Part shown: piece after piece, positions 3,349 through 33,282 of the stretch
How positions within the stretch are numbered: the stretch's first letter is position 1
How the letters are laid out: each line of letters opens with the position of its first letter
Assembly (NCBI GenBank): GCA_003990765.1
Contig: RBNJ01000293.1
Span: 1-33,894, forward strand
Direction of reading: 5' to 3'
Source: Jimgerdemannia flammicorona
Taxonomy: Eukaryota
DNA: 33,894 bases
The notes under the pieces: generated by a model
What the model was told of the DNA's origin: nothing
Databases searched by the model: none
Seen by the model: the letters and a program-made list of their open reading frames with translations, nothing else
Made by a program: the position numbers and the translations under genes

Positions 3349-3779
3349 AGCTTTCAATGTCCTCGTCAGGGCCTTCTAATTTTGTTCTAGTGTTGTTATA
3401 CTATTTGAGAGATCAAAAGTCCAGTGAAGTCTATTTTTCTCAGAAAGTGGTATGCTTATAGTACAGTTGCTTAACACATTGGATTCATACGTTAAAGAGT
3501 CGTGTGTTCGATGCCATATGCCAGAAGTGATTCTGATATTATTTACTGCTGGAGAATTTCCTCTAAGAATCTTCTTAAATGTCTATGCCTCATTTCCCAC
3601 CAGTAGTATAGGGAGAATAGGCTTGCTTTCAGTTTTGCTATTTTTCCAGAGGGTCGGTATTCTTGTCTTGTTTTACTGAGTTCTTGATTTTTGTTCATGA
3701 TAATTATAGTATTTCAGGAGGGTAATATATAGTATATACTGATAGGTATCAGAGTATTCAGATTTCAGTTGTTCAAGGA

Positions 3780-7230: not shown

Positions 7231-7424
7231 TGGTTATAGGAGCTTTCCTTCTGTTGGTTCTTCTTTGAGCCAGTTCATTGACACAAGAGAAGCAATCATC
7301 AATCATTTGGGAAGAGTACATTCCAATACCATGGGGGCATCAGCCACTAGATATATATCTATCTTCAATTTTCTTATAGAATTGTTCTTTTTTGTTTATG
7401 GTTGGTTGAGCTGGGGCCTTGTTT

Positions 7425-7830
7425 GATAAGCCAAATCCTTTGGATCCTCGGATGGTAGGTAGTAGTTCAGAGACTTCCTTAACTGTCAGAGTTGACTCAA
7501 TTTTCTCAAATAGGATCTGGGCAATGCAGAAACCAATAGGGATCTTGAAGGGTGTCCAACTGTGGTTTTGGATGAGGATAATAATTTTGCCTGTATAATC
7601 TTCATCAATGACTCCTCCTTCTACTGAGAGTTCTTTCAATGCTAGACTGCTGCAACAGCATATTCTTCCAACATGTCCTTCAGGAATTTGGATACTGATT
7701 CCTATATAGACTTGCTTGACTTCTTGGTTGGAAACTATAGCTTCTTCGGCTGCATACAGGTCATATCCAGCTGCTTTTTGACTTCCTTTGGTTGGGGCCT
7801 TGGTAGTTTGCCTTAACTTGACAAAGTCTA
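7425..7830 (-). pseudogene. dut: dUTPase domain, in frame with gag and upstream of the protease
   Basis: Five trimeric dUTPase motifs: AAGYDL, (R>C)SSLA, GGVIDEDYTG, IAQI, RGSKGFG. Confidence 0.93.
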
Positions 7831-7889
7831 GTATTCTGGTGGTCAGATTGTTGAGGTAGTGTAGAGTGGTAACAGTTGCTCATGTTGCT

Positions 7890-9720
7890 GTTCAGGGTTT
7901 TCAGTTAGGGCAGGCACTGGCCATGTATCCTGTCTTTCGTATACTCTGCTTCTTCAAAGTTCATTCCTTTCTCCTTCAGTCAGTTTCTTGAAGATATTCA
8001 CCTGGGTGAGTTTGTGATTTCTGGGTGTCCAAGAGGTGGATGTGAAGGAAGCTTGGAATGCTTTATGCTTGGGTTCTTCTTTCTTGGTCCAAGTTTTTTC
8101 CTTGTTGTTGAATTGTCTTTGGGGCAGAATTGGTCCAGCTATTAGGATTTACTTAACCATGGTCTTGATTCTTGCCAGGCCCATTGTTGGTGATCACAAT
8201 CAACTGGGCAGCCTTGTTTTTGGATTTTTCTAATAAGCTATTCAGACAGTACATCGAATAAATGGTCTGCTCTTATACCATTTCATGCTTCATCATTGGT
8301 GATATATCTTAGGCCAACAGTGTTCAGGAGTAACTCAAGTTTTGTACAGAAGGTTTCGAATTCTTCTTTGCTATGTACATTGAATTTGAGATTGTGGAGT
8401 TTTACTCAAGATTCAGCAATCATAGTTTCACTGCAGTATTGAGCAATTATGAGTTGTTTGAGTTCAGGGGCTGCAGGATGGACTTCATATCCTGAGGCAT
8501 TGTTTGCTGTATTCTGAGCAACTACTGCAGGTCAGGTGTTCCAAGTGAGGGGTTTTCAGGAAGGGTTCACCACCATTCTTCAGCAGGTTCTCGGAAGAAT
8601 ATAACAACTCAGTGGACATAGGCTATAGTGATAGCAAAGAGTTGTTCCAGAGTGTGGTCTTGATTGTTTATCAGAACGTAGTCAGCAACTCACTCATTTG
8701 TCTATTAATTGGCTTCAAAGTTGGTGTCAACTATACTAATGAAGCTTTGAACTTCTTGTGCAGTACCATTGAAGGTAGGTAGACTCAGAATTTTAGTAGG
8801 TCAGGTCTGTTCAGCTAGGGCAATAATGGTTGCTGCCATTATCACTACCTGGACTGTAAGGTCTAGAATCTGTTGGTTTGCCATATTGTTTGCTGGAGGT
8901 GATTGGACTACTGGTAGTGGTGTTACTGGTACTACTTGAGGTATTGGTGTAGAGTGTGAGGGTGTTCTTTGGGTCTGTGTAAGTTGCTGGAGTAGTAGTT
9001 GTGAGTCTGAAGTAAGGGCTTGATAGATAGCTGTTTGTTGCTGTATAGGTATATTCTGTTCTGATAGAGGGGTGTCTCTTTCGGTAGTGTATCTGAGATT
9101 GAATTCACTGAGATACTCCTCCTCCTCAGTTTGGTCCCTGTGTAATTGGGTTTGCTCAGCATTAAAGTAGACAGAATCAGTTGTATATCTGATTTCAGAT
9201 GGACTTAATTCGAAGTCAAGTTCTGGTTCAGTGTTGGTTTCAGATTTAGGTAGGGTAGTAGCAGGACCTGCTTCTGGTTCAGGGTCTAATAGTTGATGAA
9301 GGATTTCTCTTACTTCTTCTTTAAGAATATGGTAGGCCTTGCTGTTCTGGAATTGGTAGTATAACATGGTCTTGGTCCTGGTATGGTGAAAGTTGGTAGA
9401 GTTGAGCTACTTGGCTATAGAGGCTTGGGCTTTATGAGGAACTAAGGCTAGAAAGGCTGCTGCTGGTTGTCCTAGATTGCTTGGATTTGTGGAGCTGACA
9501 AAACTCTTATTGAGAAGAGTAAAGAAGGCTTCAATAAGACCTTCTTCATCTTGACTTACTGGGTGTAGTGCAAGGAGTTTAGTGAATAGAGTTTTGCCTA
9601 TTTATTGATTTAATCAGAATACTTCTTTCTTTGAGTGAAGTTTGTTCCACTTGTTACAGGTGTAGAGGTCAAATTGTCCTTATACGTCAGGTTCAATTCT
9701 CTCCAGATTGTCAGATTATT
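7890..9720 (-). pseudogene. gag: gag with long N-terminal extension and a degenerate CCHC knuckle
   Basis: LPTFNG..FI capsid-like start (~8770); KTG(H>Y)MASACPN knuckle remnant (~7905-7940). The frame of ORF 8801-9367 extends to ~9720 with only transition-type stops. Start position uncertain. Confidence 0.75.
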
Positions 9721-9828
9721 CAGGATAAATTTTAGTTCAGAGGTTGGGCTTTATACCAACTTGTAGGAATTCGCAGAGAGGTTTGTAGTGGAGTGAGGAA
9801 GTGTCTTAAAGCAGAATTGAATTGTAAA

Positions 9829-9840
9829 CTACTACTACCA
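9829..9840 (-). other. Primer-binding site candidate (TGGTAGTAGTAG), 3 nt after the 5' LTR
   Basis: Minus strand reads ...CTTACA ACT TGGTAG...; TGG complements tRNA CCA, and TGGTAG matches initiator-Met-type PBSs. tRNA identity is inferred. Confidence 0.7.
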
Positions 9841-10201
9841 AGTTGTAAGAGGGTTGCTTTTTAGGGTAACCATTTTGTAGTTCTGGAAGGGGTTTCTGGA
9901 GGTTCTGGATATTCTGGAAGACTGTTTTCTTATGGTCAAGATCAATTTCATATGGAGTATGTCCTCTACACTTATTGATTTCAAGATTGGGTTGATGTCT
10001 CAACCAAAGTCCTTTTCTGGACTAGTTCTGGATGTTCAGGAGTTTCCATATTTCAGAAAGTTCAAGAAACTAAGACTAGCTCAGTTGAATTGGCGTATCA
10101 CTGCAGACAATACCCAATTAGGAAATTTCGTGATGGGGTTAGGAGTAGGACCTAATGGGGAGCGGATTTACTTAAGAGTAATTTGTGGGTTATTAAATAG
10201 G

Positions 10202-10340
10202 TTTATTCGCTATTCATGATATTGCTATACTAGGAGTATTGTGTGAAGGAATATTGTGGGGAAGTGCTCAGGAGTTATGTTTGGATTGTTTGAGTCTTTC
10301 AAGTCTGAGATTCTGAGATCTGGGGGAGGGGGTATTTATA
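10202..10340 (-). promoter_or_regulatory. LTR genomic-RNA TATA box (TATAAATA, 10333-10340) and poly(A) signal (AATAAA, 10202-10207)
   Basis: Canonical U3/R order, conserved in the other LTR (1752-1759 and 1627-1632). Confidence 0.65.
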
Positions 10341-10529
10341 CTAGTGAGGGGCTATCTGAACTATGCTAGATATGGATGTAGCACTAAGTGCTTTGCTGAG
10401 TCGGAATGCAGTCACGTAGTACAAGTGTGATCTGACATGTCAAGGGATCATCTGACTGCTGAGTCAGTTCACAGTCACGTCGTACAAGGCTAATCTATCT
10501 ATAATATGACTGCTAGACTATTTATAGGT

Positions 10530-11627
10530 TTAGGCACTATCTGGATAGTCTTCAATGACATCACCATCGATTGCATCATCTCTGATGAAGTAGTCGTCTA
10601 GGAATAATGGTTCGCGGATTACTTCTCCTTGTTGGCTGAGGTAGTAATACATTGGGACTTCATCTCTGTCCCACAGGATAGCATCATCTGTTTCGTATGC
10701 TGGATAAGGTGTTGGTGGGCGAAGGATGGGTATATTGTCTTCGCTTTCATTGGATTCGCTGTCTGTGTACCTTCTATAGGTTACAGCACTATGAGTCGCA
10801 GGGTTGTAGTATGCTGGCAGCTGTGGTTCATGTTGCTCGTACTCAGGTGGTGGAGTGGTTGGTTTGATCTCAAGGGTTGTCTGAAGGTACAGATTGTGTT
10901 CTCCGGTCTCTTCATTGTAATTGAAGTAATCGGGGGTAAATGCGGGTTGGTATTCATACCAGTGGTCATTGTCCCAATAAGTCTCATATGCAGTTATGAA
11001 CTGTTGTAAGTTCATCGGCAAGGTTGGCGGAGTGATCAGGGTTGGCAGAGATTCTTGGCTAGAGGTCATGTCGGTATCAGAGGGATCATTGTCTTCTGCT
11101 TCATCTTTGTTGAAGTGGATTATATCATAGACGTCCTTCATGGCATATCCAACTTGAGGCATTTGCAGGATGTGGTCGTCAGGGTGCGGGAAGGTTCTGT
11201 CTGTGGTCTGGACATATTCAAGGTACTTGTGGTTGATTTCTTGTATCATGTCATCGATTTGGCCATAGGACAGGGTAGCAACCATTTCGCTGGTAGTAAC
11301 TCAGAGGCGGAGAATAAAGGTGTTGTACTCATAGAAGAGTTCTCGATATTTGCGGGCAATGAGCTTCTGGTGTTGAGACATCTGGGTAATATCTGTATCA
11401 TGGTGGTGTTCAACTATATCTTCTAGGAGGCGGCCAATCTGGTAGTAGCTTGAGATTTGTCCGATTCGGTGGGCCTCACTAAGCATGTTCAGGGCGTTCC
11501 ATCAGGCTTCCACAAAGTAGAGGGGTGCCAGGCTATAGATATTCATGAGGGGCAGAGGGGGTGTGGCTCAGTTGACAATGGCATTCCAAATGTCAGCGTG
11601 GATACGGTTGTAGATCTCGGTGGTCAT
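10530..11627 (-). pseudogene. LTR(U3)-embedded ORF, 5' LTR copy, 365 codons (MTTEIYNRIHADIW...IEDYPDSA) with three TGA stops; unknown acidic Tyr/Pro-rich protein
   Basis: ORFs 11301-11486 and 10530-11285 are in frame with the ATG at 11627. The first TGA is CGA in the 3' LTR copy. Confidence 0.85.
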
Positions 11628-11696
11628 GTTTGTGTGTTTGGAAGTTGTGGTTATTGTTTGTTTTGGTTCTCTGATTCGACGTGTCTCGGTGCTCAG

Positions 11697-11802
11697 TATA
11701 TATACATTTGGTCCTGATTGGTAAGGTTCCGTTTGTGTAGATCTTGTGTTCCATGACTTTGTATTGACTCAGCTTTGTGCACTGTGACTTCAGTTTGACT
11801 CA
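11697..11802 (-). promoter_or_regulatory. Putative promoter of the LTR ORF: TATATATA (11697-11704), CCAAT (11717-11721), two TGACTCA sites (11765, 11796)
   Basis: Motifs lie 70-175 bp upstream of the ATG; equivalents occur at ~3116-3221 in the other LTR. Confidence 0.55.
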
Positions 11803-11916
11803 GCTTTGTGATCAAGCAGATGATTTCCAGATTTGTTCGGAGGTCACATGTGATTTCGGTGGCTTTGTTCAGAGGGTGATGTGTAATTTCGGTGGCTTGG
11901 AGGTTGTGTGCTTACA

Positions 11917-12078
11917 CTATACCCTCTCCTGACATGCTGCCAGTTGAAGGCCCTAGGTCCACCCAACCTAGGATGTGCATCGGCTCACTTGCTGGTTGAC
12001 ATCTCCTTAATATCTTTCTCCAATAAACGATTTGAAAGTGTGTTATAAAGTGTGTGTAATGTGAATTGTAGCAGAGAG
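11917..12078 (-). mobile_element. LINE 5' tip (5' UTR plus start of ORF1), probably of copy A
   Basis: tgctgccagttgaaggccctag.tcca...aacctag matches 28554-28590 of LINE C. Right boundary approximate. Confidence 0.8.
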
Positions 12079-12079
12079 A

Positions 12080-14600
12080 GATGTTCTGCATCTTCAACAA
12101 CCCCTTGACCACCCAGGGTGGGAAATCTAAATGATATTCTACATACCATAGCTTTGGCATTCAATACATATTCAGCACCATCACTCTGCCAGCTAGGGAC
12201 ATATGTCAGCCTTCCCATCGCAGCAGAACATTTCTCCACTCTAGAAATTTATGGTCTCACCATGCCCAGGGAAGTAGAGATCCAAACACTGAGAAGTAGA
12301 TCTCAAATAACACACTAGTTCACCAGCCGATACCACCATCCCAATGACATCACCACCAACAATACCAGCACCCAGCACCAGAGTCTCACACTTGTGCCAG
12401 TTTAGCTTAGTGCCAGAACCCCTCTCATATCATTCCACAGACCTCTGTAACTCCCCCACATCTGCCAAGTGACCACCATATTATCAGCAAAGGCCCCCAC
12501 CTTCCAATTAATCCCTAAAATGTCCAAGCTCCCAATCTGATGCCAAATTCTGTCCAGTAGAGGCTCCAGAGAAAGGGCATACAATATGGGTGACAAGGGA
12601 TTCCCTTATAGTACCCCATGTCCCAGGGGGAAGGTCATCCCCCTGTGGCCATTAATGATCAATGCCACCTGACTGTCCTCCAAGAGGCCAATCAATGATC
12701 TTTGGAACCCTGGGGGGATTCCAATCCATTTCAGTACTCCCTCTAGCCATATTCTCTGCACTCTATCATAAGCCTTCTCCTGATCCAGAAACACCAATCT
12801 GCTATCCACCCCTATTACCTGGGTACCTTCAATCACTCCATGAACCTAAGCTATTCTATCTCGAATCAACTGACCACTGACAAACCCATGCTGCTCCACA
12901 CCAAGCATCTACTGAGTGATTCCTTGCAGCCTCATTACTAAGATCTTCATCACCAGTTTGTGGTCTATGTCAAGAAGAATAATTGGCCACCAATTCATCC
13001 AGTCCTCTCACCTCCCCTTATTCTTGTAGAGTAAGGAGACTAATCCTAAGTACTGTCCCCCAATCCAGGCACCAGACCAAAGAACTCCATCACACATAGC
13101 AGTCATTTCCTCTAGCACCACACCCACTCCAGCCATCTTCTGCCAAAAATCCCAGAGAAGTCTATCCTCTCCTGGGGCTATCCCCTTACTTGTTGTGGCC
13201 ACAACCCTGCAAATTTCCTCGCCACTCACTGGGTCCCCCAACACCCCAAGTCCTATCGCAGGGTCTGGGTGCCAATCCCCCAGCTGCCTTTCAATGTCCA
13301 GAGTATCCATTTCTCCTTCCTCCTCACTCTATAGATTCTCCCACTGGGTTCTTAATAGGCCCAGAATCACTGGAGACCCCACCACCAACTTGCCATTTGC
13401 ATCCAGGACCCCCTCCCACCTTTGCTTTGTTTGTCATGCTTGTAACAACTGTGACAAAAATCTAGTAGGCCTCTCCCCCTCCTCAAGCCTCTGCCACCAC
13501 AGGTGGGCCACCATTCCCTGCAACTTCACCTCCTTCTCTCTTTGTAATACTCCCTTAAGCTTGTCTACCTCCTGCCAGATTCTCACAATATGCCAATCAG
13601 TCACATCCTCATCCTCCAGCACACCTGCCCATCTCTCTATAAGTGCTGCCAGACACCATGAGGCCCACAGTACCCTCCGCCTTCACTGGGTATACTTTTC
13701 TTTCCCTGCCTCCCTCCAATACCTCTGAGCAGACATCTTCAACCTTCTCCAGCAGTCCCCAATCTCCAGGCCTTATTCCCACCACCTACCAATATTTCCA
13801 ACCACTTCTGTTTTCCAACTCTCCCACAATACCCTATCCTCCAACAAGGAAGAATTTAGCCACCAATGTCCAGGCCCATCCTCATTTCCCCCAAACCTCC
13901 CCCCTCCAAGCAGCCCCCAGTGATCAGACCATGGACACCATACTACTTCCAGCACTGATCAGACATCTGCTCCCCAACACTCCGCCATCAGAACCCAGTC
14001 AATCCTGGAGCCCAGCCCTGCTGTCCAGTGAGTGTACACCCACTGATTGGCCCAAAAAAGTCTTCCTGAGTCTACCAAAGAACATAACCTCTCTGTCTCC
14101 AACCAGTCCCCCAACCCACCACTTTTGCCCTGCACACCTTACCTGCCATCTGTTCTATCCATCTCCTTATCCCATACTATGTTGAAGTCACCCCCCATAC
14201 AGTCCAGCCCAACTCCTCTCAATACACCAGCCTCCTTCAATCCACGAATCCAATCCACTCTCTCCCCTCTCTCAGCTGGGCAGTAGCAAGACCCAACTGT
14301 CAACGAGCCCCATCCAGGCCTTTTTCACATTCCCCACACCACTCAAGACCCCCAATATCCAATGTCCTCAATGTCCCCCATTCCTTTCCGAACAAGAATA
14401 CACACTTTCCCCCTCTATACTGCTGCGCCCCCCCATTTCTTAGTCCAATCCTGTAAGTCCACATCTGCCTCATAATGAATATCCTGTAACAAGAAGAGGT
14501 CCACATCCAGTCTCTTAAGCCATCTAAATATATACCTCCTCCTAGTTGCCCCCCGTAACCTATTAACATTCAACAAGAATATCCTAGTTGTACTGTTCAT
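12080..14600 (-). pseudogene. LINE B ORF2: APE endonuclease plus reverse transcriptase (stops and frameshifts)
   Basis: MNSTTRIFLLNVNRLR, LLQDIH, GGDFN, WSDHW, APGED, DQEKAYDRV, LSPILY, GAFADN. Confidence 0.92.
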
Positions 14601-14631
14601 ATTGAAAAAATGTTGCAATAGCAACCCCAGC

Positions 14632-16539
14632 CTAGTACTCCATGCTCATCTCATCTCCAGCCAGATTCAAGCACCATTCAGCTTCCAAGTTACCCTCCAC
14701 ATTAGCCTGAGCATCCAGTGCCTCCAAGATTTCCTGACATTCCACCCCATCCACTACCTCCATGTTGGACTGGTAGTCTAAGCAGACTGCACACCACTTC
14801 TCCAGTTCCTTCCTCAAGTTCCACAAGAAAAGTGCCCTGTCACTCGCAATCTTCTGAAGTTCCTCCTCATGCCGATCATCAACTTGATATTCAACTGACT
14901 TCAGGAGGACAGCCAAGATCTCATTCCTCATCTTCCTCGGCACCTCCTCCTCCCATAAGATCTCCTCCCAATGCCTCTCTTCCATTACCCTGAAATCCTC
15001 ACCCCCCAGCTCTTCAGCTGCTACCCCTTCCAGAGTCTTCCACATCCACTTCTCCTCATCCACTGCCTCTGCTGCACCCTGAGCGATTCATCCCCCATCC
15101 ACCTTGGGGTCCATCAGCACACTCCTCCTCACTGACTCATCTCACTCCTCATCTGGCATATCCAGTAACTCCTCCTCCTCCTCAGCTCCACCTGGGACAC
15201 TATACTGAGGGTGCACACCCACCCATTTCTGCATCTGCCTCCAAATCGCCTTCTCTCCTCCCCCACTCCAATCCAAGCCCCACCCTGGGCCATTTCTCCC
15301 CCCTCTGCCCAGGCACTCTCCTGCAACCCTGCAACTCTCTCCCCTGAGCTTCCACCAGCCCTACCCCCACCCAACCTCACCAGCAGCTCCTTCTGGATCT
15401 TTCACCCCTGCATCTTCTCCCAAGCCCTCTTCTCCATCCAGACCCTCTTCCCATCCACCTCCCCTACCACTGTCCTGGCCTCAAACTCCTTCCAGACCAA
15501 TCTCCTCCTTGCAACCGCCCCTTCCAGATCCTCCAGAGCCTCCAACAAGTCCTCCTCCTCCTCCTGGGTCCTCTTCACCCTCATGATCTTACACTCCACT
15601 GGACCCCACCTCAGTGCCGCTGGCCAGTCCCTTGACTTCTCCATATTCTCCTTCCCAGCCAGCCTCACCCTGACATCGATGTCACCAGTCCAAAGCTCCA
15701 TGCCCTCCCAGACCTTGAAACCAACATCCACAATCTCTCCATACTCCTTGATCACCTCCACAACCAACTCCCTGGTCCTCTCCTTCGACACGGTAGAGAG
15801 ATTCAACACTGTCAACTGCACCACTCGGGGGTCCCAGCATATGCACCGGGCCATGGGGACCACAACTCCACCAACTGTCACCCCCTTCTCCATGGCCATC
15901 AACAAGGTGTCCTCCTCCTCAAACCCCACCTCAACCCCTTCCTTTCTTCTTAAAAACTTCACCAACACTGCTCCCTTAACCTCCTGCACCACTAGTCCTA
16001 AGATTATCCTCGCTGTCACCACCAAGCCCCAGAAGCCATAGTGACTGCAAATTCTGACCTCGACTTCTTGAGTAACAGGGCCGACACCATGCCTGTCACT
16101 CTATCTGCCAGGTTCCTGGGCCTCATGTCCACTCCCAGTCCTGAATTGCCAACCACTATCACATTTGAATTTTTTGCCAGATCTCTAGTCACAGCCCCAT
16201 CAACAGTTACATCTCCATCTCTAGCCTCTACTCCCACTCCTTCCCTGCCATCTGAGACTCCCCTCCCTATCCCCCAGTAGCAGCTGTCGGTGCCTTCCCC
16301 AGATCCAGCCAATTGTCAAGGCCTGAGGCCATCTTCTCCATTCTGACCTTGTCAGCAAAGGTCGACCTCTCTCCACCTCTCTGCCTCAGCCTGCCCCTCT
16401 CTCCACCACCAGGACCTCGGCTAGCTATTGAGGCCCCTGGCATCTCCAAACCATCTCCCCTCCTCCCCACCTACTACCAGCCAAAGGTGCTGGCACCCCC
16501 CTGACCAGTACGCTCACCAGTTCAATCATTGCCATCCAT
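14632..16539 (-). pseudogene. LINE B ORF1 (RRM-like core, acidic C-terminus), broken
   Basis: ORF pieces 16267-16470, 16016-16312, 15402-16025 and 14632-15063 are homologous to LINE C ORF1 (e.g. VDVGFKVWEG vs VDIGFQVWEG). Confidence 0.8.
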
Positions 16540-16610
16540 GTTAATAGTCACTTGATACCGAAAATGTAGTAAAAGTGTTGTCTGAGTTCTTGTGTCACCT
16601 GAATGTTACT

Positions 16611-17911
16611 AGTGCAAAGTCCACTAAAAGAGCTTATATTGGATGTCTGTACATGTTGGAACTCAACATTTGCAATGATCTAGCATATGCTGGAGTTTGC
16701 TATGGTATGCATCCTTTTTTTCTTCAGTCGGCTGAAGTAACTTGTTTCAGATAATTGAAGATTTATTTTAAAAAAAACAAAAAAAGCCAATAGATTCAAT
16801 AGTGGCTGCCGATAAGGAAATATAGGCCAAGGCTCTAGGTGAAAGCAAGTGGGATGTACTTAGGAATATTGTTGGAGTTTTGGAAGTAAGTGGTGATTAC
16901 TCTGGCTCTACACTCATTTTGTCAGCCTCTACACTCATTTTGTCTGCCTCCATACAATGCAACACCTCACCACATATAACTGCCAGTGTTTCGACAATTG
17001 TACGAAGGATATAGTCAAACAAATGACCCTGACAATAAGCTTGGTAATACCAGTATACAACCTTCTAATTGACTGGTTAGAGGATAAGCTCGAGGACAGG
17101 CTGGAGGGTTGTGGTGATTTATGATTGAGCCCGGATCAGAGAGATACCATAGAGGTTGCTCTTAGTAAGCTCAGAAAGTACTACTCCCAAATAGATACTG
17201 CTGTATACTCAATCAGTACAGGTATGTCAATGTTAGTGTGTGGCTATTGCCCCTTCCAAAACAGAGAAACCCTCACAAAAACTCACTCTCTCCTCTCCTT
17301 TGAACAGTGCTGGACCCATGCTTAAAGCTATAATACTATAAAGATCAGAGCTGGGAGCAGCACTTCATTGAGAGAACCAAGCAGACCATAATCAAAGTGT
17401 ACTGGAAAAACTATGCGCCACTGCAAGGTTCCGGCCGAAGTTCAGATGAATATGTCAAGGGATTCCTCCTATCTCACATTTACTTTAGCAGAAAGAGGAA
17501 GAGGGAGCTGTCAGTGGAAGAGCTGCCATTAATAGATGAACTTACTATTTACCTTGCCAGTGATCACATAATCCTGCTGGAGAGCACAGAGGTGCTCAAC
17601 TGGTGGAAGGTGGGTTGTCAGGTAGGCATTGGGCCAATTTAACCCACCAATCTAACCACTACTCTATCCACTACTCTATCTACCACTCTACCCACCGCTC
17701 TACCCACTGGGGTATGCAGCTGCATCAAATAGACTTCCCTAGCCTGTGTGATATAGCTCGGGACTATCTGGCGATTCCTGCCTCCAGCGCTCCTGTCAAG
17801 CAGATGTTCTCAGGTGGGGTAGACCTCATTGCCCCAAAGAGGTGTGTGCTGAATGCTAAGATAATCTGGGTATATATGTGTCTGAAGTCTTGGTGTGGCT
17901 CAGGCTGCTAA
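16611..17911 (+). pseudogene. hAT-superfamily transposase, 3' half, with four introns; 5' half displaced by LINE B
   Basis: LILDVCTCWNST (DVxTRWNST), KLRKYY, VLDP(R>C)LK, LNWWK..FPSL..IARDYLAIPASSAPV(KQ<ER)MFS dimerisation domain. Donors at 16705, 16886, 17222, 17610; acceptors ending 16986, 17307, 17719. Confidence 0.92.
17657..17708 (+). repeat. ~12-bp tandem repeat (ccactactctat-like, ~4 copies) in a hAT intron
   Basis: Directly visible. Confidence 0.7.
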
Positions 17912-18069
17912 AATTTGGTGAGTCCTGGGGGTTCACGGATAAGTTGGTTGGCCTTGTGGAATATTTAATACCTTTCAAAAATAATAAAAAGGCAAAAAAC
18001 CCTAATGACTCGGCCTGGAGTTTGTGGCCCAAGTGGGCAGTGGTCAGCAGGGTTGGTGGTGGTGGTGGA

Positions 18070-18695
18070 GGGAGCATGCAGTGTTTACAGCCCTCCACCA
18101 GCAGCAAGGGGCAGCCCCAAGCTGTCAGTGTCTGGGTCGGTGGGTGGGTCAGTGGGCAGGTTGGTGGAGAGAGCATATAAAATTTGTGGCCCTCCACTGA
18201 CAGCAAGGGGCAGCTCCAAGCTACAAATGTCCCAGTCAGGGGGGTTGGCAGAGGGAGTATGCAAAACTTGCGGCCCTTCACCAGCAGCAAGGGACAGCCC
18301 CAAGCTATCAGCATCTGGGTCAGTGGGTGGGATCAGTTGGCGGGATTGGTGGGCACGAGGTCGGTAGAGGGAGTGTGTAAAATTTGTGACCCTCTGCTGG
18401 CAGCAAGGGGCAGCCCCAAGCTGCAAGTATCCAGGATAGGTGAGGTAGATGGAGAGAGCATGCAAAATTTGTGGCCCTCTGCCAACAGCAAGAGGCAGCC
18501 CCAAGCTGTCAGCACCCAGGTCAGTGGGCAGGGTTGGTGGGCATGGGATCAGCAAGAGAGCATGCAAAGTTTGTGGCCCTCTACTAGTAGTAAGGGGCAG
18601 CTCCAAGCTACAAGTATCTGGAACGAGCGGGGCAGGTGGAGGGAGTGCACAAAATTTGCAGTCCTCTGCCAGCAGCATAGGGGCAGCCCTAGGCC
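18070..18695. repeat. Seven-unit GC-rich array with core GCAAGGGGCAGCCCCAAGCT and alternating spacing
   Basis: Cores at 18104, 18203, 18287, 18403, 18488, 18590, 18675; spacings 99, 84, 116, 85, 102, 85. Confidence 0.9.
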
Positions 18696-18944
18696 ACTAA
18701 AGAGTCCAGGGCAGAGGGTGTTTCTGGTGGTCAGAGGGTACTTTTAGTAGTCGGAGGGTGTTTCCGGCAGTCAAAGTCCACCACAGATTTGGGCTCTATC
18801 ACCAGTTCGGGTCTCATGGGCACCCTGGCTCTGTGCCACAGTGCCACACCAGCGGTACTGCAGAGCAGGACTAAGAGGCCAGTAGGGCCCTGCATAATGG
18901 CTAAGCTAGGGCTACAGAAGAGGTGCCCAGCCCAACCCCCACAT

Positions 18945-19053
18945 AAGACTGCCTAACCTACACAAAATGACTGCCTAACTCTCATGAAAGACTGCCTATC
19001 CCTTGCAAAAGACTGCCTATCCCTCATGAAAGATTGCCTAACCCTCACAAAAA
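18945..19053. repeat. ~22-bp tandem repeat (aagactgccta.ccctca...) x5, immediately downstream of the dioxygenase-like stop codon
   Basis: gactgccta/gattgccta recurs at a ~22-bp period. Confidence 0.85.
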
Positions 19054-20840
19054 CTACTCCATCTGCTGGTCCCAGGCCTTGATGAGCCTATTATCTATTA
19101 TGAGTATGACAACTATTGTGTCTGAGCTCTCCTTGAAGGTGATGGTGCCATAGCGGTCATCTGATTGGAAGAGGACAGCCATGTTGGCTGTAAATGGGAC
19201 CCCAAAACCATAGGTGAGGTTGTACCAGACTCTGCCACTATCCTCTCAAGTTGGGCCCTTCCTTTCTAGGATGTAAAACATTATCAGGGTGATATTGTTG
19301 TCTGTATGTGTGGGCAGAGAAAGGTTGTGCCCAACATATCCTGATGTGACACAAGTGTATGGTTGGGTGAACCCTTGGCCCAGAACCTCATACTGCCAGG
19401 CTGTGCTGGTGGATGCCTGCCCTTGGTCCAGCCCTGGGAGCCCCAGCTTAGAAATCTGCCAAAATAGACAGCAACTAGTTAGTCCTTTTTACATGCAGGG
19501 GGACAGAAACCCCTCAGGCTGCAGAAATCCCCTGGGCTGCAGCACCCCAAAAAAGCAGAGCTCACCTCATATGGCATGCTAAATTGTACCAAGAATGTAC
19601 ATATAGCTGTGCCAAGATCACCACTAAGCTGGCCTGCCATACACTCTACCAATCTGCTCAAAGAACCCCAGATTATAGCTACCATCACTATACAGGTTGT
19701 GTCATGCTCGTGTACAGTTTGCTCTTTGACAGTACTTCTAAAGTTCTAATAGGGGTACAGAATCTTGTACATCCCTGGATTTGTATCAAAAAAAAGTATG
19801 TCAGCAAAGAGTGTGATTTATCTGGAGAAGAGTAAAAAAAAGAGAGATGAGTGTGGGGGATTTCGAAACTCTGGAACCCACTCTTCGCCAGTATTGCAGT
19901 ATACCCAATTCCCATCCAAACTCCCCCTCCTTGCTTTTTTTGCCCCCTCTTTTCTGCTACCTAGTATTTGATGCAGTCCTTGCAAATCTTGTTAATGTAG
20001 CAGCAAAGCTCATCACTGTAGAGGTTCCTTACCATCATCACAACCACCTCTCTATGTTCGTTAATAAAGATATGGTTCTCTTTGTTGTTGGTTACTCCTG
20101 CTGGCCAATAGATCCCTTAGTTGAGAATGATTAGCTCTGATTCGAATGTAGACCCCCAAGCCTTGATGATAATGCTGATACTGCTCATACTGAACATCTT
20201 GCCCTTGAATTTCTCTATTTGATCAGACACCAGACATGGTTGAACTTGGATAACTTTGAACTCTCCTTTCTAATAGAACTGAGCCCTGATCTGAGAGACT
20301 GAGATAAGTGTATGGATGGGTTGTGTGCAGACAGGTTGTATGCAGGCAAGTTACATGTGGGTGGGTTGTGTGCAGGTGTGGGTGTTTTTTAGGGGAGACC
20401 ACGTAAAAAATGAAATTAAATAAAACACAGAGATGGGTATTTCAGAAAAAGAGCGTGAGTGAGTGAGTGAGTGAGTGAGCTACATACCAATGAGTTGTAT
20501 GCCAACGAGTTGTACAAGATTGCTTACAAAGGTCTGCTTCTGTTTCTTTTGAGACCTCCACTATGTGATGTATTGACTCAATAGCTCAGCCACCAAAGGT
20601 ATACCCTGCAATGTCCTCCAACCTTTCATCTTGACCAGATGTTATGAATAAAGTTGGCAGATCTTGCCATAGAGCTGTGGACCCTAAGAAGAGCACAAAG
20701 TGAATCAGGTCATGCTGGGGGAATTTAAACAAAAGTAGCAGCAGAAAAGAGCAATCTACATCTACTACTGACTGCTCCAAAAAGGCTACTGCATACATAG
20801 CTATGAGGTCTGTGAATTCTGAGGTCCAAAGGTCTACCAT
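19054..20840 (-). pseudogene. Spliced 2OG-Fe(II) dioxygenase-like gene, TET/JBP-like; 5' boundary uncertain
   Basis: Exons 20528-20683, 19882-20290, 19566-19774 and 19054-19455 join in frame via GT-AG introns. Product has KRG..GGGVWMGIGY, LGLPGL, PT-HTD-NN (19300-19308) and GFGVPFTANMAVLFQSDDR(Y<H)GT (19150-19152), and ends IKAWDQQME*. Confidence 0.68.
20455..20478. repeat. (GTGA)6 microsatellite inside a predicted intron
   Basis: Directly visible. Confidence 0.9.
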
Positions 20841-21143
20841 GAGTTATTGCTAGAATTCACCCTCACCCCCACCATTGCCACTATCACCCTTTTGGCTCTT
20901 GATGAGCAGCTTGTATGCTGTCCATATGAGAAAAAATCTAACATTATCAGCAGAGAGTGTGTTTCCACCTCAAATACTCTCTCTTTTGATAATCATTGCA
21001 GGGTGAAAAATGAGTAAACTAGACCAATGTATGAATTAAGGGCTGCTATTCTGTTTGCTTATGAATATAGCAGGAAAGAACAAAGAAAAAGAATAAAGAA
21101 AAGAGAGGGAACAAAGGAAAGGGTGATGTCACCAAAGATTTCA

Positions 21144-21348
21144 ATCTGGATGGGTCAATCTGGATGGATCATCTGGATGGGTCAATCTGGATGGATCATC
21201 CAGATGAATCAATCCAGATAGATCAATCCAGATCAATCCAGATCAATCTGGATCAGATCACAAGACCAATCTGAGTTGATTCGAATCCATCACATGATGA
21301 ACTTGAATCAAATCTCATCTGGATCAACTCTATTTGTTTGGAGCACTA
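21144..21348. repeat. Subterminal ATCTGGAT/ATCCAGAT repeats and hAT-type terminal inverted repeat end
   Basis: About ten copies of the motif in both orientations, followed by tttggagcacta (reverse complement TAGTGCTCCAAA). Confidence 0.8.
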
Positions 21349-21592
21349 GTTGTAAGATTTGATAGATAATCTTCCAAGTCTCTTTTCTACAACTCATACT
21401 CTCTCTATCTCAGGTTGATTTGTTATATCTATTGCAGAGCAGTAGAAGAGAGACAATAGTGATTTATCAGTATTGAATTAGTATTTTCTTTACTTTTTTA
21501 TAGTTTCTAATACTTCTAGTTATATCTAGAGTATATTCATTTTAGTATAGTACCTTCTTTCTTTTACTATCATCAACAAGGTATCATCTCAG

Positions 21593-21912
21593 TAGTACTC
21601 CCAATAAATCAAATCAAAGGTCCAATTCAATTTGATTCAAATCAAATTGAAGGCTAATTTAATTTGAGGTCCAATTCAAACTCTATTTTTCAAAATGTAA
21701 TAACTCAATAAATATATATTTAAATTCAATAATCTTTAGCTTATTAGATTTCTCTTATATAAGAAAATCTAACAAACTAAAGATCATTAAATTTAAACAT
21801 ATATTTATCAAGTTATTATATTTCAAAAAATAGGGTTTAAATTAGACCCTTAATTTAATTCAAACTTAATTCAAATTGAAAAATTCCTAATTTAATTTGT
21901 TTGGAAGTACTA
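21593..21912. mobile_element. hAT-type foldback MITE 1 (320 bp)
   Basis: TIRs tagtactcccaa / ttggaagtacta; 8-bp TSD catctcag / tatctcaa (two transitions); internal palindrome centred ~21757. Confidence 0.85.
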
Positions 21913-22173
21913 TATCTCAATATATTATAGGTTATATAGAAAGTTAGTTGACCTTAAGTATTAAGTACTAGTATAGATTATATGTAAGTTCTTGGTATCT
22001 ATATATAGTAAAGTTCTCTAAGCTTTAGTAAACTTCTCAGTGAACATAGTTCTAACATAAGTAACTGTTTTTTAGGTAAAGTTGAGATGAGAGAGGATAT
22101 GGCTATTATAGATAAGAGAAAGAGTAATTATAGTAAACTAGTTAAGTACTAGACTAGAGATAGTTATTAGAGC

Positions 22174-22556
22174 TAGTGCTCCCAATGATTTGAATCGAAT
22201 CAAGGGTCCAATTCAATTCTAATTCAATTTGAAGTTTGATTCAAACCTTAATTTTCAAAATATAATAACTAGACAAAAACTCATCTAAATTTAACATATT
22301 TTAGCTTGTTAGATTTACCATATTAATGTGATTCCAACAAGCTAAAGTACATTAGATTTGGATGAGTTTATACTGAGTTATTACATTTTGAAAATTAGGG
22401 TTTGAATTAGCCCCTCAATTCAATTTGACTTTTGATTTGATTTGACTTTTGATTTGATTTGAATTGATTTGAATTGAAAAATCCCCAATTCGATTTGACT
22501 TGTTTAACTTTCAATTCAATTTAATTCAAATTAATTTGACTTATTTGGGAGCACTA
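22174..22556. mobile_element. hAT-type foldback MITE 2 (383 bp)
   Basis: Perfect TIRs tagtgctcccaa / ttgggagcacta; perfect 8-bp TSD attagagc (22166-22173 and 22557-22564); internal palindrome centred ~22324. Confidence 0.95.
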
Positions 22557-22902
22557 ATTAGAGCTAGAGTAGATACTATATTGGTAGGGTCTTCTGATTG
22601 GTACTAAGTAGTTAGATGATAGATATTACTCTTAGTAGCTTTTGATATACTATAGTATTACTAGGAGATTATTAAGAGATCCAAGACTATCTGAATTAGA
22701 TATCTTAACTATATTTAACTAAAACTAAGAGCTGATATAATAATATAATCAAGGTCTATAAGCTTAAATAGTAGAGTATTAGAGATCTCCTCTTATCTTA
22801 TATATAAGTTATCTACTTATCTCATTTTTTTTTTTTTATAGTCACTTGAACTCGTCCTATATTATACCCATCTATTCTATATAAATACAATAAACCCACC
22901 CC

Positions 22903-25900
22903 CTATCCAATCCCCCTAGGGGGGCCCCTCCCCCCTATCCCTTCTCGATGAAACACCACTCTATCGAATACAATTCCCACCCTCCCACTACTCTATTTGT
23001 ATATCCTTGCCACCAAACCATACCACCACCCCTCTGAGGGACCCCAACCTATCTACCATCCAGTCAACAGATCCCCCAACAGCTCCTCCCACCTTACAAC
23101 CTTCTCCTGTAGGCTCATCTGCTGCCTCTCCTTAAATACAAATAGCCAATATCCCACCAGACCCACCCAAACTGCTAACACCCACCCAACAGTGAGTCAA
23201 CTATCACCCACCCCCCCCACCAGCCGAGATCTCAAGTTCTCCCAGCAATCTCCTTCACCCACTGGCCTGTGCTCCACACCCAGTCTATTCTCTATTTCAA
23301 CCCAAAAGTCCCCCAAAACCTCACACTCCCCCAGCCAATGTTCTGACATCTGCACCAAACCCCCAACTTGCCCTACATTGTAACACTCCTCACAATCAAA
23401 ACATCCACCATCCACCAGATGCCCAGTGTGGAAATTCAGCATGATGTTCCTCTGTAGCATTCACCACTATACTATCCAGAACTTGGGGGGAAGCCACTGC
23501 TATACCTCAGCACTCCAAGACCAGATACCAGCCCAGTCCCACTCCTTACTGATTCTGACTACCTGCCAACCACTTGGCCAAAGGTCTTGGCCAAGACCCT
23601 GCTGACACTCTATTCTATCTCCAATATCAAAAGTAACAAGTGGAGCACCCCCCAGAAGCAGTCTATTTCATCACCATATATGAGGACCCCACAATACCTC
23701 CCCCTCATTGCCTTGCTAGCACAGACCAATTCTGTATACTCCATCAACCACTCTCCATCAAAAGCCCTTAAATCGCAGCCACCAAATTCCATTGAGCCCT
23801 ACCAAAGAGAGTAGATCTCCTGAGGACCCTTGGGAGGAGGTTCTCATCTCCCACACCTTCTGCATCAGAAGTACCCAACCCCCTCCCTGTAGTTCAGCCA
23901 CTCTCTTCAGCCACCAGGCTCGCAAGCAGTACAACCTCTTAGAGAAATCCACAAGACCAAGACCTCCCCTGTCCACTGGTGTCGCAAGAGTATTCCAACT
24001 GATCTGGGACCTCCTCTCTGCCCAAATCCAATCCCTAGCCACCTTCATCAGCCTCTTCACCACCCAAGCTGGGAAGTCTAGATAATATACCACATACCAT
24101 AGCTTGGGAAACCAGTATATATTCAGAATTGATACCCGCTCTGCTAGAGAGATATGGCAGCCTCCCCAATCTCGAAGGGCCTCCCCCCAAATAGCCACCC
24201 TACTCTCCCACCACACTCATGGTAAGACAGAACCATATACAGAGAGGAAGATGCCCAGATACCATACTATCTTACCAGTAGAGACAATTGTTCCAATAAT
24301 GTCCCCACCCACCAGTCCATTCCCTAGCACCATAGTCTCACACTTATGCCAGTTGAGCTTTACCTCAGAGTGAACCTCATACCATTCCACTGTCTCTTGA
24401 AGTGCCTCGACATCTACCACAGACCCAAGGCCAACCACTATATCATCTGCAAAGGCCCCCACCTTCCACACTATACCATAGATAGAGAGCCCCACTACCT
24501 TCTGGCAAATCCTATCCATTAATGGTTTCAATGAGAGAGCATAAAGAATAGGGGACAAGGGGTCCCCCTGAGGAACCCCTCTTCTCAAGGTAAACACCTG
24601 ACCATGGTGACTATTACACAACAGTGCTGCCTGACTGCCCTTAAGCAGATTCACCATAGAAGCCCGAAATCCAGGAGGAACACCAATATGGTCCAACACC
24701 TTGCCCAGCCAAACCTACCAGACCTGGTCATAGGCCTTCTCCTGATCCAAAAAGACCAACCTCCCATCCAGGCTGCAAGCCTGGGCCCCTTCAATAATAC
24801 CATGCACCCAAGCAGTCCCATCTCTAATAAGCCTACCTCCAACAAAGCCCTGCTGCTCCTCCCCCAGCACCTGTTGGGCAACCTTCTGCAGTCTTGCGAC
24901 AACCACCTTAGTTACCATCTTCCTGTCTATGTCCAAAAGCATGATTGGCTGCCAGTTCTTCCAGTCTTCTCTCCTCCCCTTGTCTTTGTACAATAAAACC
25001 ACTAGCCCAAGGTCCTGCTCTCCAACCCATTCACCACTCTAAAGAATATGATTATAGAGAGCAGTTATCTCCCCCAGAATGCTGGAGACCTTGACCATCT
25101 TCTTCCAGAAGTCCCATGGTAGTCTATCCTCCCCTGGTACTGTTCCAGTTTTAGTTGCTGCAAGGACACTCTGGACTTCCTCACCTCGCACTGGCAAGGC
25201 CAAGTCATCCAGTCCAGCCACTTGCAGCGGCCTCCATTCTCCTAATGCATCTTCAATAGTCACCTCATCAGTACCCCCTTCATCCTCACTCCACAAACCC
25301 TACCATCTCTCTTTCAAAACCCCTAGGATTTGTTGCATGCCATGTACTATGTCTCCATCAGCATTGAGAACTCCATCCCACCAATGTCTCACCCTCCTAG
25401 CATTGAGCAGATGGGATAAATATCTAGTAGGCTGCTCACCCTCCTCAAGCTCCTACCACTATAGCCTAGCAGCCATACCTCGTATATGCACCTCCTCCTC
25501 TTCTCTCAGAACCTGTTGCAGTTCTAATATCTCCAATTTAATCTGTACTAACCTCTAATCCTCCACCCCATCAGAAGTAAGCAAACCTACCCAATCCATT
25601 TGCAATCTCCTCAGCCTGCTGGAAGTATACCTTGTGTGCTTCCTCCTTCATCTCCCAGCTTCTCTCCCAGTCTCTCTCCAATAGACCCTCGCAGCCTCTT
25701 TCAATCTCATCTACTGGACACCCACTGACAAACCCTCACACCTCTAGTAAGAAACTTTCACCTGAATGTCCTCTACCCACAAATCCCACAACCCCTTCTC
25801 AGGTAGTAGGGAGGAGTTGAGGCACCAATGTCCGGGTCTATCTCTACTCTCCCCAAACTGCCCCTGTCCCAATAGTCCCCAGTAATCAGACTATGGGCAC

Positions 25901-26562
25901 CATTCTACCTCCAATACCTTCTAGACATCAGACCCCCAGCATTCCATCATCAGAATCCAGTCAATCCTTATACCCAAGCCATTCACCCAATGCATATAGA
26001 TCCTGGAGTTGCTCCATTGTGTTCTACCCATATCCCCTAAGGAGCTCAGCCTCTCTACCTTCTCCCATACATCCAGGCCTCCACTTCTCCCTCCTGCACT
26101 CCTCCCACCATCAGTGTGGTCCAGACACTGATCCCGAACCATATTAAAGTCTCCCCCAATCATATCGACCCCTTCTGCCAAGAGAACATCCTCCTCCAGC
26201 AGCTCCTCAATCCAAGCAATCCTCTCACCTCTAATCGCAGGGCAGTAGTAAGAGCCAACCCTCACCGACTCCCACCCTGGCCACTGCCAATCTCCTCAGA
26301 CCAAATGGTCACCCCAGCTTCTGATTCCCTTCAAGTCACCTCTATCCTTCCTCATCAGAATTACCACTTTTCCAAACCAAGCAGTAGTCCTGCCCCATTC
26401 CTTAGTCCACTTCACCTGATTATCCTCATCCTCATACTGAACATCCTGTAGTAAAAAGAGATCAGCCTCCAATCCCTTGAGCCAAGTAAAAATGTTCTTA
26501 CACTATCCAGACCCCCTCAGCCCATTCACATTCAAAGAGAAAATATTAGTTATACTGTTCAT
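22903..26562 (-). pseudogene. LINE C ORF2 (~1220 codons): APE endonuclease, RT, C-terminal Cys/His region
   Basis: MNSITNIFSLNVNGLRG, GGDFN, RIDWI, KNWQPIMLLDIDRK, DQEKAYD, GVPQGDPLSPILY, AFADD, CFDC..HWLGEC. Confidence 0.95.
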
Positions 26563-26593
26563 AAGGAATAATGCTAAAAAGTGATCCCATCCT

Positions 26594-28633
26594 CTATAAG
26601 TCCACATTCAGCTCCTCCTGCACCAAGTCCAATTCACATTCAGCAGCTAGTTCCCTTTCCCCAGCTTCCCATACCTCCAATTCTCCCAGAAGTTCTACTA
26701 TTGCCTCATCTTCCCTCTCCTCAAATTCCTCTCGATACTCCAGACAGGCCTCCCTCCAGAGCTGCAAACCATGCCACTCAGCCCAGCAGTATGTTGCCTG
26801 CTCACTTGCAGCCACCACCAGCTCTGCCTTCCTCACCTCATTGACCTCATATCTCTCCTCCTTTAAGAGGATCACAAGAATCTCCCCCCTCAGTGCCTCC
26901 ACTACTCCCTCACCATGCAGAATCTGCTCCCAGTATCCCTCAGGCATAACCCACAGGTCCACTTCTTCCAATGTATCAGCCACAAGGTTATCCATCACCT
27001 TGCTCATCCACAGCAAGTTTTCTACCTCCTTCCCTCCAGGAGTCCCTGGCTGTCCCGCATCCAACATCATGGTATCAGCACCCATACTGGCAGCCTCATC
27101 CCACTTCTCCTCAGGGACATCCACCAGCTCATCCTCATCAGCTGCCACCACCTGGCTCCCTTTTGCCACATCAGGGATCCCAAAACATACTCGCTGGGCC
27201 CCCTTCATTAGCATATCCTCTGATGTCCTTCTCTTTACAGCCAGGCCCCTCCTGATCAGAGGGGGGGGGGTGGAGTTCAATTCTGGCTCCCAGACCTCAA
27301 AGGTGCCATTGGCAAAAGAGTCCTTGCTCAGTACCTTCCCATCTCCTTCCTTGCCTACCTCCACCTCCCCTATCCCTTTACTAGTCCAGACACTGGCCTC
27401 AACACCCCCAGACACCTCAGCCCCAACTGCCTTCTTCTTTGCCTTAACTGTCATACTTGCCAGTAACTCCCTCTGCCTCCTGCACCCCTGCACCCGCTCC
27501 CACTGCCCCTTATCCATGTGAATATGCTTCCCCTCCATAACCTCCAGATGTGTCAACTCCTCATATATCTTCCAGGCCCTTGCCCTCCTCTCCACAGCTC
27601 CACTCATCTCCTCCAGCACCTCTAACAAGTCCTCCTCCTTCTCCTCACTCCTCTTCACCCTTGATACCTTACAGATGAATGTCCTCCACATCAGCACAGA
27701 AGGCCAGTTACTTGCCTTCCCCATGACCTCTTTTCCTGCCAGCCAAATCTTAACATCAATGTTACTTGTCCTGATTGTCGTCCCCTCCCACACCTGAAAG
27801 CCAATATCCACCACATTACTATACTCAATCATCACCTCCTCCACCCTCTTCCTAGTCTCCTCCTTGGTCACCATGAGCACCCCCTTCACCAGAAGCTATA
27901 CCACTCTGGAGTCCCATCGCAAGCACTGCACTATAGGGACCACCACCTCCCCAACTATGACTCCAGTCTTCAGTACCTCATCTAGTGGACTGGCCTCCTC
28001 AAAGCCCACCTCAACTCCCTCCAGACCCTTCAAGAACTTCACTGAGGCCACCCCAGCCACCTGCTTCGAGATAAGCCCCAGAACCATCCTTGCCATCACT
28101 GCCAAGCCCCAGAAGCACAAGGTCACTGCAAACTCCGAGATCAACTTCTTGAGCAACAGGGTCACCACCAGCCCCATTATACTATCCACTAGGTCCCCCT
28201 TCCACATCGGGAACCCCTGTCCCCCCTGGCCATTAGCCATCACATCTTCTTTTTTTTCCTGATTCTCTATCACACTCCCATCAACAGTCACACCCCCAGC
28301 CACAGCACCTCCAGCCCCTACACCTACACTCCCAGCTAGAGCACTGCCCCCTCTCTTAAGGCTTATCTTGCCCTTCCCCTCAATAGCACTAGCCCTATTA
28401 CCAGCCGGCCACCCACTCTTCTTAACCTTGTCTGTGAAGCTTGAGAGACCAGATCTTCCCTCATTGCCACCTGACACCAGTCCCCCTCTAGAGCCTTCTC
28501 CATTCTTCGGTCCTCTGAAGGCTCCCATCCCTAGACCATAACCCCTTCCCACCTGCTGCCAGTTGAAGGCCCTAGATCCATTCAACCTAGTATGCACACC
28601 TGTATGGTCATTGCTCTCTATGTTGCTAGTCAT
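26594..28633 (-). pseudogene. LINE C ORF1 (~680 codons, one internal TAG at 27896)
   Basis: ORFs 27896-28633 and 26594-27889 are in the same frame, lie upstream of ORF2 and are homologous to LINE B ORF1. Confidence 0.88.
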
Positions 28634-28723
28634 CTTTTACCAAAAAACATTATTGAAAGTATTGTCTGAGTCTTGTGTCACCTGAATGTTACTGGTAAAA
28701 GGTGCTTGTCTACTTATCTCATT

Positions 28724-33000: not shown

Positions 33001-33282
33001 GTTTGCCTGGAAATAGAGGAAGAGCAAGAAGAAGAAGCCTACATGGTTACCATGAGATAAGCAGTGGACAGAGGAAGAATAGTACAAAAGGATTACAGAC
33101 AGATATGCCTCACTAGGAAGGTACCCCCATGGTGAAAGAATGTACTACACCCAGTACTTGGATCACTGCTACTCCTGCATCATTGAAGTGAAAAAGATCT
33201 CCAATAAGCCAAAGAAGAACCAGGAGGAACCAGAAGATGGATCACTAGAGCTATTGAATAACAGCAATGATGAAGAAGACAT

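Follow-up and report, generated by a model that had tools for sequence, protein, structure and literature searches.

Fungal TET/JBP genes have reportedly been tied by Iyer et al. in 2014 to the Kyakuja-Dileera-Zisupton (KDZ) and Plavaka transposons. In a recent survey (Kojima 2025, Biology 14:1741, Dec 2025, PMC12730594), TET/JBP genes are described in complete DNA transposons, with seven carrier lineages in Pucciniomycetes (rusts) and several in mushrooms and truffles. Among the carriers given there is hAT7, with twenty TET-positive families in six Puccinia species and a target site duplication (TSD) of 7 bp. The same source defines a PE type with HxE in place of HxD as its hallmark; this type is reported to match classical TETs only weakly by HHpred (E 1.4 to CMD1), and its models in AlphaFold DB to resemble CMD1, NgTET and CcTET with E<1e-5. 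Here we describe a related arrangement in Jimgerdemannia flammicorona, on contig RBNJ01000293.1 of assembly GCA_003990765.1 (33,894 nt, + strand; the whole of this stretch is called the window in the following). Positions 16625-21348 can be read as the right two thirds of a single hAT-superfamily transposon copy, old and decayed, that carries a very divergent TET/JBP-like gene, a reading for and against which we see the chances evenly balanced. The features concerned, with terminal inverted repeat (TIR), miniature inverted-repeat transposable element (MITE), open reading frame (ORF) and Tandem Repeats Finder (TRF) abbreviated, are the following.

16625-17911, + strand: hAT transposase gene, C-terminal ~40-45% (PF05699 and hAT-like motifs; spliced or frame-broken; pseudogene)
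19054-20269, - strand: spliced gene, probably TET/JBP-like (PE-like, HxD), pseudogene here (tblastn with the relatives P0002 and P0004; leads from the Atlas search described below)
20270-21140, - strand: possible 5' exons and promoter of the preceding gene (ORFs at 20586-20843)
21141-21336: subterminal repeats, TCAATCTGGATGG units followed by TTGAATCAAATC-like motifs (TRF period 14, 6.4 copies; period 27, 3 copies; repeat families D9 and D15)
21337-21348, - strand: right TIR, TAGTGCTCCAAA in minus-strand reading, aligned with four MITE ends
21349-21356: GTTGTAAG, predicted half of an 8-bp TSD, from sequence; the left partner falls outside the window
21593-21912: MITE 1, same TIR family, TSD agreeing at 6/8 positions (CATCTCAG / TATCTCAA)
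22174-22556: MITE 2, same TIR, perfect 8-bp TSD ATTAGAGC

The element is bordered by a long interspersed nuclear element (LINE A) on one side and by a short AT-rich flank with the two MITEs on the other.

A hAT transposon with TET cargo is, by the hAT7 families of this survey (PMC12730594), already a known class of system. A preliminary description of the locus, made from the sequence alone, had known of no described hAT association and is superseded on this point. Like hAT7 of Puccinia, the locus combines a hAT DNA transposon and a probable TET/JBP-type gene beside the transposase with repeats that show C-to-T decay. The TSD is 7 bp in hAT7 and 8 bp in the MITEs bearing the window TIR. Furthermore, hAT7 is reported with a PU-type TET, which in three families precedes the transposase and is read in the same direction, whereas the window gene lies downstream and is convergent. 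A short-motif search of the available Table S1 returned none of the motifs of the window family apart from a chance FYNL in one PU-type sequence. With the PE type as described there, the gene shares the motif order over the whole protein (judged by eye), the absence of an ordinary sequence match to classical TET, and the location on a transposon. It differs by HxD instead of the hallmark HxE and is therefore not assigned to the PE type; in addition, the accessible text names no hAT carrier for that type. The presumed 2-His-1-carboxylate triad HxD...H would be common to the structurally solved TET-family enzymes CcTET, NgTET and CMD1, to which there is no detectable sequence match. The KDZ and Plavaka systems offer the idea of a transposon-linked TET/JBP expansion, and the 8-bp TSDs of Zisupton and Dileera, as given in the survey, are a further likeness. 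In contrast, the sole transposase beside the window gene belongs to hAT, and none of KDZ or Plavaka type was noticed in the window, for which search no dedicated model was at hand. Measured against the available parts of the survey, new here would be the combination of a hAT lineage with 8-bp TSDs, a cargo gene that lies downstream and convergent, and a dioxygenase-like family that by its hallmarks is neither PU, AG nor PE.

Results and Discussion

The right end of the element is recognized by comparison with its neighbors. The TIR TAGTGCTCC... of the terminus at 21337-21348 is common to the two MITEs next to it. Allowing at most one mismatch, there are 6 occurrences of TAGTRCTCCMAA where 0.84 would be expected; 0 of 100 shuffled sequences attain as many. 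Five of the six occurrences are the terminus and both ends of MITE 1 and MITE 2; the sixth, at 17179, lies inside coding sequence and is taken as chance. An alignment with the MITE ends extends over the final ~20 bases of the main element as well. The match of terminus and MITE TIRs claimed earlier is thereby substantiated. hAT TIRs are short, begin with YARNG and are accompanied by subterminal repeats. A TIR of ~12 nt beginning TAGTG with subterminal repeats fits this pattern, and a hAT-like nature of the 21348 terminus is supported. No left TIR is present in the window: at up to three mismatches, further matches occur only at the MITE ends and at 3251. No second TIR of this family occurs within 16625-21336 at the same threshold, so there is no internal boundary of this type between the two genes, and in particular none within 17911-19054, the interval in which, according to the preliminary description, such a boundary would have spoken for two elements. 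The ends of a full copy of the family are anticipated to be TAGTGCTCC...GGAGCACTA.

The transposase is identified by its C-terminal domain. The + strand ORF 17564-17911 matches PF05699 (Dimer_Tnp_hAT) with E 6.3e-9 and 36 bits compared to a cut-off of 21.4, and it is the only one of 12 scanned ORFs above the curated Pfam cut-off, in accordance with the hAT identity proposed earlier for the fragment ending at 17911. Upstream of this ORF, hAT-like motifs are seen by eye in shifting frames, for example LILDVCTCWNSTF from ~16624 and ...KLRKYYSQ..., with plausible GT..AG introns between them. Of the spliced transposase in the preliminary description, the C-terminal domain and the GT..AG gaps are retained; the gene itself is a pseudogene with in-frame stops at 17122-24 (TGA) and 17331-33 (TAA). 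Its interruption has a visible cause. When LINE A and its relative LINE B are aligned at their 5' ends, the LINE likeness extends to ~16615-16625, so that the 5' end of LINE A cuts the hAT element and interrupts the transposase inside its coding region. Members of the hAT superfamily also have an RNase-H-like DDE core and an N-terminal DNA-binding (BED) region; in this gene LINE A has cut off the N-terminal half, which falls outside the window, and 16625-17911 retains the C-terminal portion. The TAGTGC at 16611 is not a TIR, since it belongs to the LINE 5' end abutting the hAT sequence at ~16615-16625. Judged by LINE B, LINE A ends with its 3' side ~100 bases upstream of position 1, so the lost half of the hAT element should lie just beyond the window.

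For the minus-strand gene, relatives were searched with P0001, that is 19054-19488 read through the TGA with X, which was scored against 1.84 billion representatives at E<=1e-3. Six proteins were obtained: P0002 (136 aa, 74% identity, E 1.7e-58), P0003 (E 1.5e-26), P0004 (374 aa, E 8.6e-12), P0005, P0006 and P0007. P0008 was added by a further search starting from P0004. P0006 (E 8e-7), a 432-aa repeat protein matching in seven short stretches, was judged a repeat artefact and excluded from the alignments. A second search with P0001 for longer homologues found none, and profile A1, an alignment of 7 rows of the gene family, retrieved only P0004 and P0002 at E<=1. Scanning metagenomes with the family alignment yielded two further loci, L001 (3666 nt) and L002 (2870 nt), which stem from two different metagenome records, are 99.0% identical and each carry an intact homologue with at least three exons. 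For L001 the identity over the C-terminal exon is 38%.

By tblastn, P0002 matches the window gene with 73% identity (E 4.5e-63), and P0004 is colinear with the window in three blocks: residues 92-182 correspond to 20104-19850, 167-227 to 19775-19566 and 234-337 to 19452-19144, while residues 1-91 have no tblastn match in the window. The block edges coincide with the two introns of L001, which separate ...FASG from MHSC... and ...DRLY from DHPTLP..., and the minus-strand gene is therefore spliced. This confirms the spliced gene ending at 19054 in the preliminary description. Four in-frame stops interrupt it (20117-19 TAA, 19961-63 TAG, 19746-48 TAG, 19246-48 TGA). With stops in both reading frames, the hAT transposase and the minus-strand gene are both pseudogenes in this copy.

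The family is held together by a small set of residues. The proximal His is shared by 7/7 rows of A1. HxD is found in P0002, P0003, P0004, P0008, L001, L002 and the window, as HTD or HVD wherever the motif is kept, and HVN replaces HVD in P0005 and P0007. The distal His is present in P0002, P0003, P0004, P0005, P0008, L001 and L002, the exceptions being the truncated P0007 and the window copy; the latter encodes HTD near 19300 and has Tyr at the distal position (DRYGT, codon 19150-19152). An Arg past the distal His (...T/V-x-x-R-L) occurs in P0001-P0004, is shifted by one residue in P0008 and is missing in P0005 and L001. The minus-strand gene is thus homologous to a small family of HxD...H proteins.

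Other copies of the element were sampled in one public run, X1, which held 0.05 of the sampled words. Its contigs of ~200 nt were placed at at least 80% likeness, 2192 of them on 14000-24000. Over 19246, 24/24 contigs read C, which turns TGA into TGG, the Trp of P0002 and P0003. Likewise, 11/11 read G over 20119 (TAA to CAA) and 20/20 read G over 17124, where the TGA of the hAT frame becomes TGG. With sense codons at these three stops, the window copy is one decayed member of a multi-copy family of which other members are less broken. The differences between X1 and the window are mostly transitions (A>G 255 and T>C 280 versus C>T 164 and G>A 156; each transversion class at most 32), in which the window copy more often carries A/T. 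At 21348 the contig depth drops from ~200 to ~13; this fits a repeat boundary, but as depth is no copy number it is not relied on.

The relationship of the protein to TET/JBP enzymes was approached with a protein-language-model search (Atlas). Full-length P0004 gave as its top match, at 0.96 with 209 shared features, a Basidiomycota cluster with PF20515 in 15% of its members, and a Tet_JBP cluster at rank 11. The C-terminal exon of L001 gave at rank 4 a cluster named 'Tet-like 2OG-Fe(II) oxygenase superfamily' (PF20515 in 72%, 0.91, 178 shared) and at rank 7 Tet_JBP (31%). All ten best family-bearing matches belong to one common family or clan. A literature search on 2OG-FeII_Oxy_6 / PF20515 found nothing. 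By eye, a common motif order links the gene family with the PE-type sequences in the available Table S1 of Kojima: E[LI]V.VV; G.SAG..S; GGxF[FY]...YG[IV]x[IV]...N[TS]...HG[TS]; GLS..T..RL. These likenesses back the TET/JBP-like reading as a lead, and the minus-strand gene is probably a very divergent TET/JBP-like gene; a dioxygenase fold and a substrate are what we infer for its protein.

Several results weigh against this assignment. No Pfam family, including Tet_JBP (PF12851) and the Tet-like 2OG-FeII_Oxy_6 (PF20515), was matched at E<=10 or E<=1 by the window ORFs of the gene, P0001-P0005, P0007 or the exons of L001, and profile A1 had 0 matches at E<=10 among PDB sequences. The AlphaFold2 models are unusable, with a mean predicted local distance difference test (pLDDT) of 36.7 for full-length P0004 (7 rows) and 36.4 for the C-terminal exon (10 rows). 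Some relatives lack the Arg past the distal His, the family has HTD or HVD where the PE hallmark would be HxE, and the Atlas scores are leads only, by the search tool's own warning. An accessory protein of another function, in which HxD...H is not an iron-binding triad, would account for the lack of any Pfam or PDB sequence match and of a usable structure model, as well as for HVN in P0005 and P0007 and the non-universal Arg. It would leave unexplained why the Atlas neighbors are Tet-like whether the full-length protein or the C-terminal exon is used, the ten best family-bearing matches falling in one family or clan, and why the motifs are colinear with PE-type proteins, which Kojima ties via structure to CMD1, NgTET and CcTET. 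We consider such a function distinctly improbable. Of the HxD..H dioxygenase-like gene in the preliminary description, HxD holds in most relatives and the distal His in all intact ones, and the Tet-like Atlas neighbors and the PE motifs by eye are in line with it; in this copy the distal His is Tyr, and neither a Pfam match nor models of sufficient pLDDT were obtained.

Next to the protein, the unity of the element has to be considered. The two genes converge across repeat arrays, as described before, and these arrays are present.

17642-17708: 12-nt tandem array (TRF period 12, 5.6 copies), inside the last putative transposase intron
18058-18694: internal tandem array of 6-7 units of ~91-100 nt (repeat families D1 and D4)
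18712-18764: 20-nt tandem array (TRF)
18940-19052: 21-nt tandem array (TRF period 21, 5.3 copies), directly downstream of the stop of the minus-strand gene

Copy-number joints among the X1 contigs were observed in the array of 91-100-nt units, at 18145-18640.

Two unrelated remnants could adjoin here: the TET-like gene and the 21348 terminus would belong to an element of their own, either non-autonomous hAT-like or of another superfamily with 8-bp TSDs such as Zisupton or Dileera, and the hAT fragment would remain from a different one, which the former had entered or landed next to. The heavy nesting of the region, with a Gypsy element inside a LINE inside the hAT sequence, is compatible with this, as are the ~1.1 kb of tandem arrays between the genes, over which X1 contigs are fewer or of lower depth (depth not being copy number). 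Zisupton and Dileera are the classical TET carriers, and Kojima (PMC12730594) reports 8-bp TSDs for Zisupton and for Zisupton-1_PGr (Dileera), so that TSD length alone cannot fix the superfamily. The 8-bp TSD, put forward earlier as the hAT signature, is perfect for MITE 2, reaches 6/8 for MITE 1 and is not exclusive to hAT. For the main element itself, the 8 bp are deduced from the sister MITEs, its own left TIR and TSD being outside the window. The ambiguity of the TSD length and the position of the left end outside the window also count against a single element, and to them are added that no contig or locus with both a hAT transposase and a gene of the minus-strand type was seen, that none of the ~200-nt X1 contigs spans both genes, and that L001 (3.7 kb) and L002 (2.9 kb) show the gene with no transposase nearby. 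Three X1 contigs moreover leave the window sequence at 21137, the start of the subterminal repeats, with the loose end TGCGGCAGAAAAAAA, which may reflect structural variation or, in some copies, a boundary.

Nevertheless, there is no second family TIR in 16625-21336, the TIR is short, begins TAGTG and is followed by subterminal repeats in the hAT-like manner, and the orientation of the hAT fragment, towards the terminus, is what a single element would show. The similar numbers of distinct X1 contigs over both genes (20 and 24) are a weak hint in the same direction. Taken together, an adjoining of two unrelated remnants appears unlikely, though by no means negligible, and we infer that the two genes were parts of one element.

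The missing transposase on the L001 and L002 contigs would likewise fit a single-copy host gene that decayed to a pseudogene and merely lies between transposons. Given 24 distinct X1 contigs over 19246 at at least 80% likeness, 99.0% identical copies in two metagenome records and the position of the gene inside a terminus-bounded repeat, such an origin is highly improbable.

The surroundings of the gene in L001 provide an independent comparison. By tblastx, L001 and L002 match the window only in the exons of the dioxygenase-like gene. The end of L001, ~1.6 kb downstream of the gene and past a second gene, carries a GATTTGA-type repeat block with 82% likeness over 56 nt (E 1e-7) to the subterminal repeats of the window MITEs. 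It is followed by ...TTGGAAGC..., which resembles the window ends ...TTGGRAGYACTA; the repeat is simple, and this is a candidate terminus only. A second, diverged instance of the gene beside such a terminus makes it more likely that this transposon group carries the gene as cargo. The second gene of L001, at 2320-3250 between the TET-like gene and the repeat-rich end, is spliced, lacks a Pfam match and is not represented in the window.

Whether these genes form a fourth lineage of transposon-borne TET/JBP-like dioxygenases is a tentative proposal, which we hold to be possible but to fall somewhat short of an even chance. Such a lineage would be PE-like in architecture with HxD, invisible to Pfam and known from fewer than ten relatives; it would reside in a canonical 8-bp-TSD hAT of a CpG-methylating fungus and recur beside like subterminal repeats in unrelated metagenome contigs. 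It would be another case in which a cut-and-paste transposon independently acquired a demethylase.

The base composition of the window points towards a methylated genomic background. The observed/expected ratio of CpG is 0.07-0.22 in every segment, and the transposable-element segments show an excess of TpG/CpA, which suggests heavy CpG methylation and subsequent deamination in this genome. Together with the transition-dominated differences between copies, this would mean that repeats of the host undergo methylation and deamination at CpG.

In the proposed course of events, the element would have consisted of a transposase gene (+) and, convergent to it, a spliced accessory gene (-) for a TET/JBP-like 2-oxoglutarate (2OG)/Fe(II) dioxygenase, with the TIR TAGTGCTCC... 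and subterminal repeats. In active copies, the enzyme would oxidize 5-methylcytosine (5mC) or another modified base on the DNA of the element. This oxidation would blunt the CpG methylation by the host, resulting in less silencing and less C-to-T decay. Later, a full-length LINE would have inserted into the transposase gene at ~16620, and both genes would then have been inactivated by transition mutations. A transposon with its own 5mC-oxidizing enzyme would represent a counter-defence against genome methylation. If this holds true, a further hAT lineage with a dioxygenase too divergent for standard profiles would show the catalogue of Kojima 2025, which was built by homology searching with known TET queries, to be still incomplete. 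It would also add a further enzyme family, with 5mC, N6-methyladenine (6mA) or a CMD1-like reaction as candidate substrates. The copy in the window is dead, and its value is that of a pointer to intact copies elsewhere.

Genomic setting

The window is eukaryotic in content and rich in repeats; its layout was derived from self-comparison (BLAST) and Pfam scans. Besides the hAT element and the MITEs, the following features were assigned, with the long terminal repeat abbreviated as LTR.

1-1268, - strand: LINE A, 3' part (6-1268 versus 22939-24201, 74%, self-BLAST)
1268-11925, - strand: Gypsy-type LTR retrotransposon, within LINE A
11926-16620, - strand: LINE A, 5' part (12089-16613 versus LINE B 24040-28696, 65-70%, self-BLAST)
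22840-28696, - strand: LINE B (RVT_1 domain; poly-T at ~22826-22838)
33533-33894, inverted relative to LINE B: third LINE 3' end, 91% like the LINE B 3' end

Between LINE B and ORFs at 32023-33144, which have no Pfam match, the segment 29001-30000 is very AT-rich (GC 18.8%). LINE A is present in two pieces, separated by the Gypsy element at 1268-11925. The LTRs of the latter, 1268-3344 and 9843-11925, are ~2.08 kb each and 86.6% identical, and Pfam domains were found for reverse transcriptase-RNaseH at 5168-5743 and for dUTPase at 7340-7879 (E 9e-32). The LINEs belong to one family with at least three copies or fragments in the window, of which LINE A and LINE B agree at 65-74%; their plus strands are strongly C-rich, with a GC skew of ~-0.5.

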